From the sequence record PQ529420: a stretch of 64,000 nt of DNA; one strand, given 5' to 3'. Source of the DNA: Escherichia phage Eryne. Positions 33,915 to 34,644 of this stretch are shown in pieces. How positions within the stretch are numbered: position 1 is the first letter of the stretch; each line of letters starts with the position of its first letter. A program made the translations under genes and the position numbers. A model generated the notes under the pieces. It searched no databases. It worked only from the letters and a program-made list of their open reading frames with translations, and was not told the DNA's origin.

Positions 33915-34280
33915 TTAAACGTTTTCTAAATCTTTTAAGGCATTACCCAACGTTAGAACAATAACATCGTTTGCTGCCTCTTCCCCATTGATATTGGTGA
34001 AATTTGGTGTGACAAAAGTAACCATATAAAACTCGTCCACCTGGAAGATAGCAATAACACCATCCATCTTAACATCTTGACGAAAGGAAAAACCAATCAT
34101 CTTCTCTTGCAAAGGCATATCCCCTTCCTTCATTACCGCTAGGGAGTTTTCAGGAATGTTATATTTATCTGCTCCGATGTAGATGTATGTAATGTTATCT
34201 TTATCGTGATGATACAGGGTCGCTTTTTCCATATCTAAACCTGACAGATCAAATACGTTAATTTCTTGTGTAGTCTTCAT
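33915..34280 (-). CDS. hypothetical protein
   Basis: Start moved to Met with GGGAGGA SD (MKTTQEINVF). Confidence 0.45.
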   Translation of the reverse strand: MKTTQEINVFDLSGLDMEKATLYHHDKDNITYIYIGADKYNIPENSLAVMKEGDMPLQEKMIGFSFRQDVKMDGVIAIFQVDEFYMVTFVTPNFTNINGEEAANDVIVLTLGNALKDLENV

Positions 34281-34644
34281 AAATATCCTCCCAAATCCAA
34301 TAATCATCTGTGTAAGTAGGATGCCTTTTATCCCACTCTGTTCTAGCCCAAGCAACCGCTGCTACCAACACATCACCATGACAAGGTTGAGGTGAGCAGA
34401 AGCAAACTAAGTCTTTCCCTTCTAATTCTAACAAATCCTCAAGAGTGATTTTACCACAACGAATTTGTTCCCACAACCACTCTTTATATCTTTGTATAGT
34501 TGATCCTCGTGGTTCATCATCCTTTAACTTAAAAGGATTTGCAAACTTTGAGGCTTTTAACCCCATATGAGGCATAGCTCTGCCAATGTACACTGCACCT
34601 TCAGGTATTACTTTACCTAAGTGGTAAAAATTTAATACTTTCAT
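34258..34644 (-). CDS. DUF4326-like protein
   Basis: Start at internal Met (MKVLNF); motifs AVYIGR, SKFANPF, CFCSPQPCHGDVL. Confidence 0.5.
   Translation of the reverse strand: MKVLNFYHLGKVIPEGAVYIGRAMPHMGLKASKFANPFKLKDDEPRGSTIQRYKEWLWEQIRCGKITLEDLLELEGKDLVCFCSPQPCHGDVLVAAVAWARTEWDKRHPTYTDDYWIWEDIYEDYTRN

Follow-up and report, generated by a model that had tools for sequence, protein, structure and literature searches.

A stand-alone DUF4326 protein of Escherichia phage Eryne and its possible place in the NAD+/ADP-ribose network

The stretch of Escherichia phage Eryne DNA that we analysed (sequence record PQ529420; 64,000 nucleotides (nt) in all, hereafter the window) carries, in the leftward small-gene block of this phi92-like phage, a gene for a 128-amino-acid (aa) protein of the DUF4326 family. 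Here we describe the gene and its product, and the role in NAD+/ADP-ribose (ADPr) metabolism to which the domain fusions and gene neighbourhoods of the family tentatively point. The features of the gene are:

34258..34644, minus strand: coding sequence (128 codons and a stop) of the DUF4326 protein, which stands alone and is the ortholog of phi92 gene_202 and of T-even NrdA.1 (open reading frame (ORF) and translation, Pfam PF14216, deposited identical or near-identical genes, and annotation of the same coordinates in the record of phage vB_EcoM_ZYD (ZYD))

34330..34644, minus strand: folded DUF4326 core, residues 1-105 (AlphaFold2 model and conservation across 279 domains)

34378..34404, minus strand: C81-F-C83-SPQP-C88-H89 motif, a candidate catalytic or metal-binding centre (conservation, pattern count, codons checked)

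34261..34329, minus strand: acidic and aromatic C-terminal tail, residues 106-128 (...DDYWIWEDIYEDYTRN), predicted to be disordered (predicted local distance difference test (pLDDT) 53-60)

The ORF runs from an ATG at 34644 to a stop codon at 34258-34260 and its product translates as MKVLNFYHLGKVIPEGAVYIGRAMPHMGLKASKFANPFKLKDDEPRGSTIQRYKEWLWEQIRCGKITLEDLLELEGKDLVCFCSPQPCHGDVLVAAVAWARTEWDKRHPTYTDDYWIWEDIYEDYTRN, in which all three motifs quoted by a first-pass annotation of this DNA were found: AVYIGR at residues 17-22, SKFANPF at residues 32-38 and C.CSPQPCHGDVL at residues 81-93 (CFCSPQPCHGDVL). While the mechanical ORF reaches back to a TTG at 34668, chosen as the start in the phi92 record (136 aa), the ATG at 34644 is the better supported start, because the N-termini of homologs align at MKVLNF, the ZYD record starts there and the ATG lies 1 nt after the TAA of the upstream gene, a spacing that suggests translational coupling. 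At its 3' end the gene overlaps the next one (ATG at 34280) by 23 nt and includes the ribosome-binding site of the latter (GGAGG, 34287-34291), such that the last codons of the tail, whose isoelectric point (pI) is 4.5, also carry the start signals of the next gene. The orthologs are 57-82% identical at the amino-acid level, with dN values of 0.13-0.38 and saturated synonymous sites, and dN/dS relative to phi92 is 0.12. Since dN is low against saturated synonymous change, the gene is real and maintained by purifying selection, and the possibility that the ORF is not a gene was rejected on the Pfam match and dN/dS. No Pfam matches were found in the neighbouring genes (32892-37482), whose PHROGs are all of unknown function, and a promoter and terminator scan from 32.8 to 40.2 kb gave counts not above those of shuffled sequences.

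Searches with profile hidden Markov models (HMMs) place the protein in DUF4326 almost beyond doubt on sequence grounds, as the first-pass annotation had proposed from the motifs: Pfam PF14216 matched at E = 1.4e-21 with 77.3 bits, far above the gathering cut-off of 25, over HMM positions 5-81 of 82, and was the sole Pfam family to match at E<=1. The family motifs Y-I-G-R, S-K-[FW]-x-N-P-F and L-V-C-x-C-x4-C-H-G-D are all present, at positions that are 86-97% conserved across the 279 domains, and among the matches listed all but one of 120 homologs carry PF14216. The protein also matched phrog_464, whose function is not assigned, at E = 2.6e-42 and phrog_24867, named 'ribonucleotide reductase NrdA-like', at E = 1.7e-28, whereas a scan of NCBIfam gave no match and the PADLOC models matched no known defence or anti-defence family. 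A Foldseek search of BFVD with the predicted structure, the other check named alongside the HMM search, agreed with the assignment: 29 matches were obtained at E<=1e-3 (down to E = 1.6e-13, TM-score up to 0.73), the named ones nearly all labelled DUF4326 and coming from phages, from giant viruses (pithoviruses, marseilleviruses and pandoraviruses) and from haloviruses of archaea. DUF4326 is a very large family with members in phages, in giant and archaeal viruses and in some bacteria, and it includes a phage T4 gene. Searched with the profile, 1.84 billion cluster representatives (50% identity) yielded 23,208 matches at E<=1e-3 and 8,622 at E<=1e-10, and of 50,697 phage records 1,838 had a family match by tblastn. 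The 4 kb surrounding the gene are 99.2%, 98.8% and 98.5% identical to the phi92-like E. coli myoviruses vB_EcoM_ZYD, Paula and phi92, respectively. Both the gene sequence and the family are already known, since the phi92 ortholog, gene_202 (YP_009012535.1), and a 100% identical protein from phage 92CQ are deposited in public databases; the window gene is 99-100% identical to the phi92 and 92CQ genes. The description of the domain as functionally uncharacterised likewise holds, as the literature search returned no experiment on DUF4326 and sequence searches detected no solved structure.

The database label 'NrdA-like ribonucleotide reductase', carried on by phrog_24867 and by 'NrdA.1-like' notes, is by sequence evidence a naming artefact. 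T-even ORFs named nrdA.1 encode DUF4326 proteins (E = 1.3e-21 for RB7 and 6.8e-20 for Aeh1 on the DUF4326 HMM); the RB7 ORF lies directly upstream of nrdA in the frd-td-nrdA cluster and that of Aeh1 between td and denA. The label is an artefact because a positional name, nrdA.1, turned into 'NrdA.1-like' and then into 'NrdA-like ribonucleotide reductase'. We rejected the idea of a true ribonucleotide reductase (RNR) fragment, as the protein has 128 aa compared to the approximately 750 aa of NrdA and DUF4326 is its only Pfam family at E<=1; Pfam matches to the RNR large-subunit barrel or to ATP-cone domains were not found in it. An immediate practical value of the analysis is that the label should be corrected to 'DUF4326 domain protein (NrdA.1-like)'.

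An AlphaFold2 model of the protein, built from a 55-sequence alignment, had a mean pLDDT of 90.6 and a predicted TM-score of 0.79; across residues 1-110 the pLDDT averages per block were 90-99. The predicted elements are a strand at residues 3-5, a strand at 18-19, a long loop bearing SKFANPF, helices at 46-63 and 68-72, a strand at 79-81 and a last helix at 89-107. Sixteen positions are at least 85% identical across the 279 domains (N5, Y19, G21, R22, S32, N36, P37, F38, R46, Y53, L74, L79, C81, C83, C88 and H89), most of them polar or Cys/His, and such a density of conserved polar residues within about 100 aa suggests, as far as sequence comparison goes, an enzyme or a specific ligand pocket. 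In the model C81, C83, C88 and H89, each of which is 96-97% conserved, span the segment that starts where the third strand ends and reaches the N-terminal end of the last helix. The pattern C-x-C-(4/5/8 aa)-C-H was counted 266 times among 267 proteins, C83 and C88 being separated by four residues in 231 cases, by five in 4 and by eight in 31, and two variants depart from it: P0147 lacks C83 and P0163 has Tyr instead of H89. Beyond this core, the tail (DDYWIWEDIYEDY) has a W-x-W-E motif that is kept only in phi92-, rV5- and PVP-SE1-like relatives and could be a protein-interaction motif. Searches of the PDB were uninformative: Foldseek found nothing at E<=1e-3 (best E 1.7; two Cys-phosphatases at E = 4.4 and 6.8), and phmmer and profile searches of PDB sequences gave nothing meaningful (glutathione S-transferase (GST) at E = 0.059; GrpE and uL18 at E of about 1).

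The same cluster could belong to a module that is not an enzyme at all: C81, C83, C88 and H89 may chelate Zn2+ in a nucleic-acid-binding or targeting module that recognises DNA or RNA, possibly modified, and recruits or regulates NADAR, Macro or SLOG proteins, helicases or primases. We give this explanation a low probability. The four invariant Cys/His ligands speak for it, as does a loop of four, five or eight residues, which is typical of metal knuckles and not of phosphate-binding loops, and the domains of the family are mildly basic (median pI 8.8), whereas the domain of the window protein itself is neutral (pI 6.8). Nucleic-acid connections also recur, in fusions or matches that include a DnaA C-terminal helix-turn-helix (HTH) and a DEAD-helicase-like region, in a Toprim-annotated Bacillus phage protein and an 852-position PHROG 'DNA repair protein' among the matches, in tandem arrays of two or three DUF4326 copies, in a UvrD-like helicase 1.3 kb downstream in the window and in a helicase two genes upstream in another contig. 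However, conserved polar residues that would not be ligands (N5, R22, S32, N36, R46 and Y53) suggest a small-molecule pocket, P0147 and P0163 fit poorly to an obligatory four-ligand site, and the dominant partners of the family are nucleotide- and ADPr-processing enzymes.

These partners emerged from a Pfam scan of 59 longer DUF4326 relatives, in which NADAR was found in 7 and SLOG families (YAcAr, DprA-like and LDcluster4) in about 8. One relative (P0136) is a Macro-NADAR-DUF4326 triple fusion, and there were single cases of fusion to ASCH, the DnaA C-terminal HTH and DUF3800, as well as several tandem DUF4326 arrays. A domain-restricted search of 79 IMG/VR loci detected SLOG fused to DUF4326 in 5 and as a separate gene within 100 bp in 3, one of which also had a fusion. 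DUF4326 is also embedded in giant ORFs of IMG/VR loci, on the plus strand at 4703..11500 of L076/L097 (2,265 aa) and at 257..12805 of L091 (4,182 aa); the 2,265-aa protein has DUF4326 at residues 1772-1843 and a YpsA-type SLOG at the C-terminus, the remainder being unannotated. DUF4326, NADAR and Macro, which are fused elsewhere, are separate genes in the window:

43424..43975, plus strand: stand-alone NADAR protein of 183 aa (phi92 gp223), an inferred partner (Pfam NADAR: E = 3.8e-36, score 125 bits, cut-off 35)

22747..23481, minus strand: Macro-domain protein of 244 aa, an inferred partner (Pfam Macro: E = 2.3e-7, score 31 bits, cut-off 22; 'putative macrodomain protein' in ZYD)

The NADAR protein, annotated as hypothetical in both phi92 and ZYD, shares 28-32% identity with the NADAR portions of NADAR-DUF4326 fusions and is, by analogy with AdfN of T4, Bas32 and Bas60 (PMC11825919), a candidate anti-DarTG1 DNA de-ADP-ribosylase. 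That DUF4326 could itself be a divergent NADAR/YbiA-like N-glycosidase, taking an ADP-ribose or ribosyl group off a base, is very unlikely. The protein did not match Pfam NADAR (PF08719) at E<=1, and hhalign against the NADAR domains of the fusion proteins gave a probability of 0.4%, from shallow alignments. In addition, the order of motifs differs, with a Cys/His cluster in place of the catalytic residues, acidic ones and lysine, that have been reported for NADAR, and the fusions to true NADAR domains speak for an activity that complements theirs rather than repeating it.

Gene neighbourhoods outside the window also lead to NAD+. In Salmonella phage PVP-SE1 the ortholog (gene 29, 59% identical) lies between the gene for a NadR-type NMNAT/ribosylnicotinamide kinase (gene 26) and that for PnuC (gene 32), and NadR and PnuC homologs were found 0.25-3.1 kb from DUF4326 in 11 of 80 IMG/VR loci, which form 5 groups at 90% identity. 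The PVP-SE1 locus (L020, 2366..5886) is a compact NAD-salvage island, with the NadR-type gene, two small ORFs, DUF4326, two further ORFs and PnuC, and it is conserved among Vequintavirinae-like genomes of about 146-149 kb. A bacterial genome has NAPRTase, an NMNAT-like gene and an isochorismatase-family gene at approximately 3-7 kb from DUF4326; a phage SIR2 gene and an Acb2/Tad1-like gene lie 3.6 kb and 6.5 kb, respectively, from DUF4326 in other genomes, and in further loci the gene belongs to early blocks that include ArdA or a gene annotated as antirestriction. With respect to its distribution the DUF4326 gene behaves as a mobile accessory gene. The first-pass annotation had named the protein a candidate enzyme acting on a nucleotide or on a host protein: the nucleotide part fits these fusions and neighbourhoods, while nothing pointed to a host protein.

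In T4-like contigs the neighbours are instead thymidine kinase, deoxynucleoside kinase (dNK), dCMP deaminase, glutaredoxin (Grx) and RNR genes, and the protein might be an accessory of deoxynucleoside triphosphate (dNTP) synthesis, for instance by serving RNR as a regulatory or thiol/redox partner, which is the only sense in which the 'NrdA-like' label could be right. The T-even homolog directly upstream of nrdA and the position of the Aeh1 gene favour this possibility, and so do loci with DUF4326 in the vicinity of thymidine kinase, or of dNK, dCMP deaminase and glutaredoxin; in several IMG/VR loci genes for RNR alpha, Td, dCMP deaminase and Grx are again found at distances of up to 10 kb, NrdD and NrdG are encoded about 5.4-7.7 kb downstream on the same strand of the window, and the conserved cysteines could be redox-active. 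Proximity is weak evidence, though, as nucleotide-metabolism genes are common in the early and middle regions of large phages. The protein has no similarity to NrdA, the label deriving from a positional name, and the family is abundant in giant and archaeal viruses and in fusions to ADPr domains, with no fusion to dNTP enzymes. We consider an accessory role in dNTP synthesis to have only a slight chance of being correct.

A role in ADPr metabolism has been proposed before. Iyer et al. (PMC7824862, PMC9503650), who also described DUF4326 fusions, predicted a rhodanese-phosphatase-like activity that removes a terminal phosphate from ADPr products, a prediction based on an analysis called 'in preparation'. 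In a 2025 preprint a C-terminal DUF4326 is reported for the giant-virus homologs of ORF83, a SLOG-like anti-Avs protein, and this fusion is the only link of DUF4326 to anti-defence in the literature. The NAD/ADPr arena is plausible because phage NADARs, including one from Vequintavirinae, are proven anti-DarTG1 factors (PMC11825919). One such NADAR, AdfN(T4), shows full activity only in T-even infection, and its authors suggest that an unidentified T-even protein may be required.

The explanation that we tentatively favour, at somewhat less than an even chance, places the DUF4326 protein in the NAD+/ADPr network, as an enzyme or, failing that, as a module that binds a specific ligand. It would be a small enzyme for a ribose-phosphate or ADP-ribose-type ligand, with R22, S32, N36, R46 and Y53 forming the ligand pocket and the C81/C83/C88/H89 cluster, located where the last helix begins, forming the reactive centre, and it would work with or after NADAR, Macro or SLOG activities. 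The substrate may be a small molecule derived from ADP-ribose or the remnant of an ADP-ribose adduct, and the purpose would most plausibly be counter-defence against host immunity based on NAD or ADP-ribose, or else NAD+ economy. The chemistry that we favour is the published prediction, a thiol-dependent removal of the terminal phosphate of the ribose, which is the weakest step of the proposal, and phosphatase chemistry specifically seems improbable to us. Going further, DUF4326 might represent a previously unrecognised class of Cys/His (or Zn) enzymes that completes the reversal of ADP-ribose-based immunity by phages, removing a phosphate or phosphoribosyl remnant or serving as a phage-encoded helper of NADAR de-ADP-ribosylases; this we regard as doubtful. 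Since T-even phages encode NrdA.1, NADAR-DUF4326 fusions are common and the phage studied here has both genes, we infer, purely from these associations, that NrdA.1/DUF4326 is a candidate for the missing T-even factor of AdfN(T4).

Several observations weigh against a role in the NAD+/ADPr network. The canonical Cys-phosphatase signature is missing, with H89-G90 (in H-G-D) instead of Arg after the Cys loop, the C83-C88 loop has four, five or eight residues in otherwise close relatives, and the four C/C/C/H ligands might just as well form a structural zinc site. The linkage in the window is loose, because NADAR and Macro lie 8.8 kb and 10.8 kb, respectively, from the DUF4326 gene and NADAR is on the opposite strand. 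Moreover, the loci with NadR and PnuC come from a single, Vequintavirinae-like clade, as all of the genomes are about 146-149 kb, and the NadR/PnuC synteny is absent from the window. Unbiased clustering of neighbours in the 80 IMG/VR loci revealed no neighbour family common to more than 3 of 16 lineages, and the literature searched yielded no experiment on any DUF4326 member. If the protein is nonetheless an enzyme of NAD/ADP-ribose metabolism, it would be a new component of phage counter-defence against DarTG, Thoeris and NADase systems, and phi92-type or T4-type phages of E. coli would be tractable systems for this question.

Other genes of the window are described here in their own right. 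The Macro gene (22747..23481) is one of three adjacent minus-strand genes (22747..24980), the others encoding a ComF-like PRTase_3 (23459..24313; E = 5e-41) and a HAD hydrolase (24309..24962), and about 3 kb beyond this trio lies a minus-strand gene called 'tellurite resistance protein' in ZYD (18330..19433); the arrangement looks like a small module for nucleotide or ADP-ribose metabolites. Directly upstream of the NADAR gene, a plus-strand gene (42230..43423) that is called 'endonuclease' in phi92 encodes a protein of 397 aa that has four CapR-homology repeats (E = 1e-38) and weak matches to a treble-clef zinc finger and to T5orf172. The UvrD-like SF1 helicase gene (31154..32929, minus strand) is contiguous in the window (578-591 aa), whereas in phi92 and vB_EcoM_ZYD it measures 2775 nt and is annotated as intein-containing, the window phage being without this 1038-nt insertion. 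NrdD (27018..28817, minus strand) is likewise one continuous ORF of 599 aa here and in ZYD, while in phi92 it is given as two pieces and a joined 'spliced variant'. Two AAA-type ATPases of 386 and 375 aa (25370..26530, minus strand; 41028..42155, plus strand), which flank the small-gene blocks and have weak nSTAND3 matches, may be paralogous.

Compared to known systems, DUF4326 may resemble the Cys-phosphatases and rhodaneses in the modelled succession of a strand, a Cys-containing loop at the N-terminus of a helix and the helix itself. Strand 79-81, C81/C83, the loop, C88-H89 and helix 89-107 are compatible with a rhodanese-phosphatase topology, although only three short strands are predicted, and the conserved arginines could bind phosphate; below the threshold, the model matched MKP5, PFA-DSP1, PTEN and a rhodanese-like domain. 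In contrast to these enzymes, DUF4326 has neither the CX5R of PTP/Cdc25 nor the CX4-5[RT] of rhodaneses, and three cysteines instead of one, in a loop of variable rather than fixed length; neither structural nor sequence searches gave a significant match to a Cys-phosphatase or rhodanese. NADAR/YbiA proteins such as DarG1 and phage AdfN are the best structural neighbours of the model, though weak ones, and NADAR shares the biological arena of DUF4326 as a frequent fusion partner, but the conserved residues differ and DUF4326 is about half the size.

A further comparison concerns DUF488. One DUF4326 relative with a CHRR variant of the motif (P0207) passes the Pfam cut-offs for DUF488 (PF04343; 23.6 against 22.2) and DUF488-N3a (PF22751; 28.2 against 27), with the matches covering the C-terminal half that comprises helix, strand, Cys-loop and helix, which suggests that DUF4326 and DUF488 may share a C-terminal module. 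The window protein did not match Pfam DUF488, and homology to DUF488 by way of E. coli YeaO was rejected (hhalign 0.3%; HMM score of -0.2 bits, below that of shuffled controls). In the literature searched DUF488 is itself uncharacterised, and a sequence search found no solved structure of it. To NrdA the sole likeness is that the T-even homolog adjoins nrdA in the genome. With the other DUF4326 proteins, including phi92 gene_202, T-even NrdA.1 and PVP-SE1 gp29, the window protein shares the same HMM, motifs and predicted fold; it differs from most members by its clade-specific acidic and aromatic C-terminal tail, and from the many relatives that are fused to NADAR, SLOG or Macro or arranged in tandem by standing alone.

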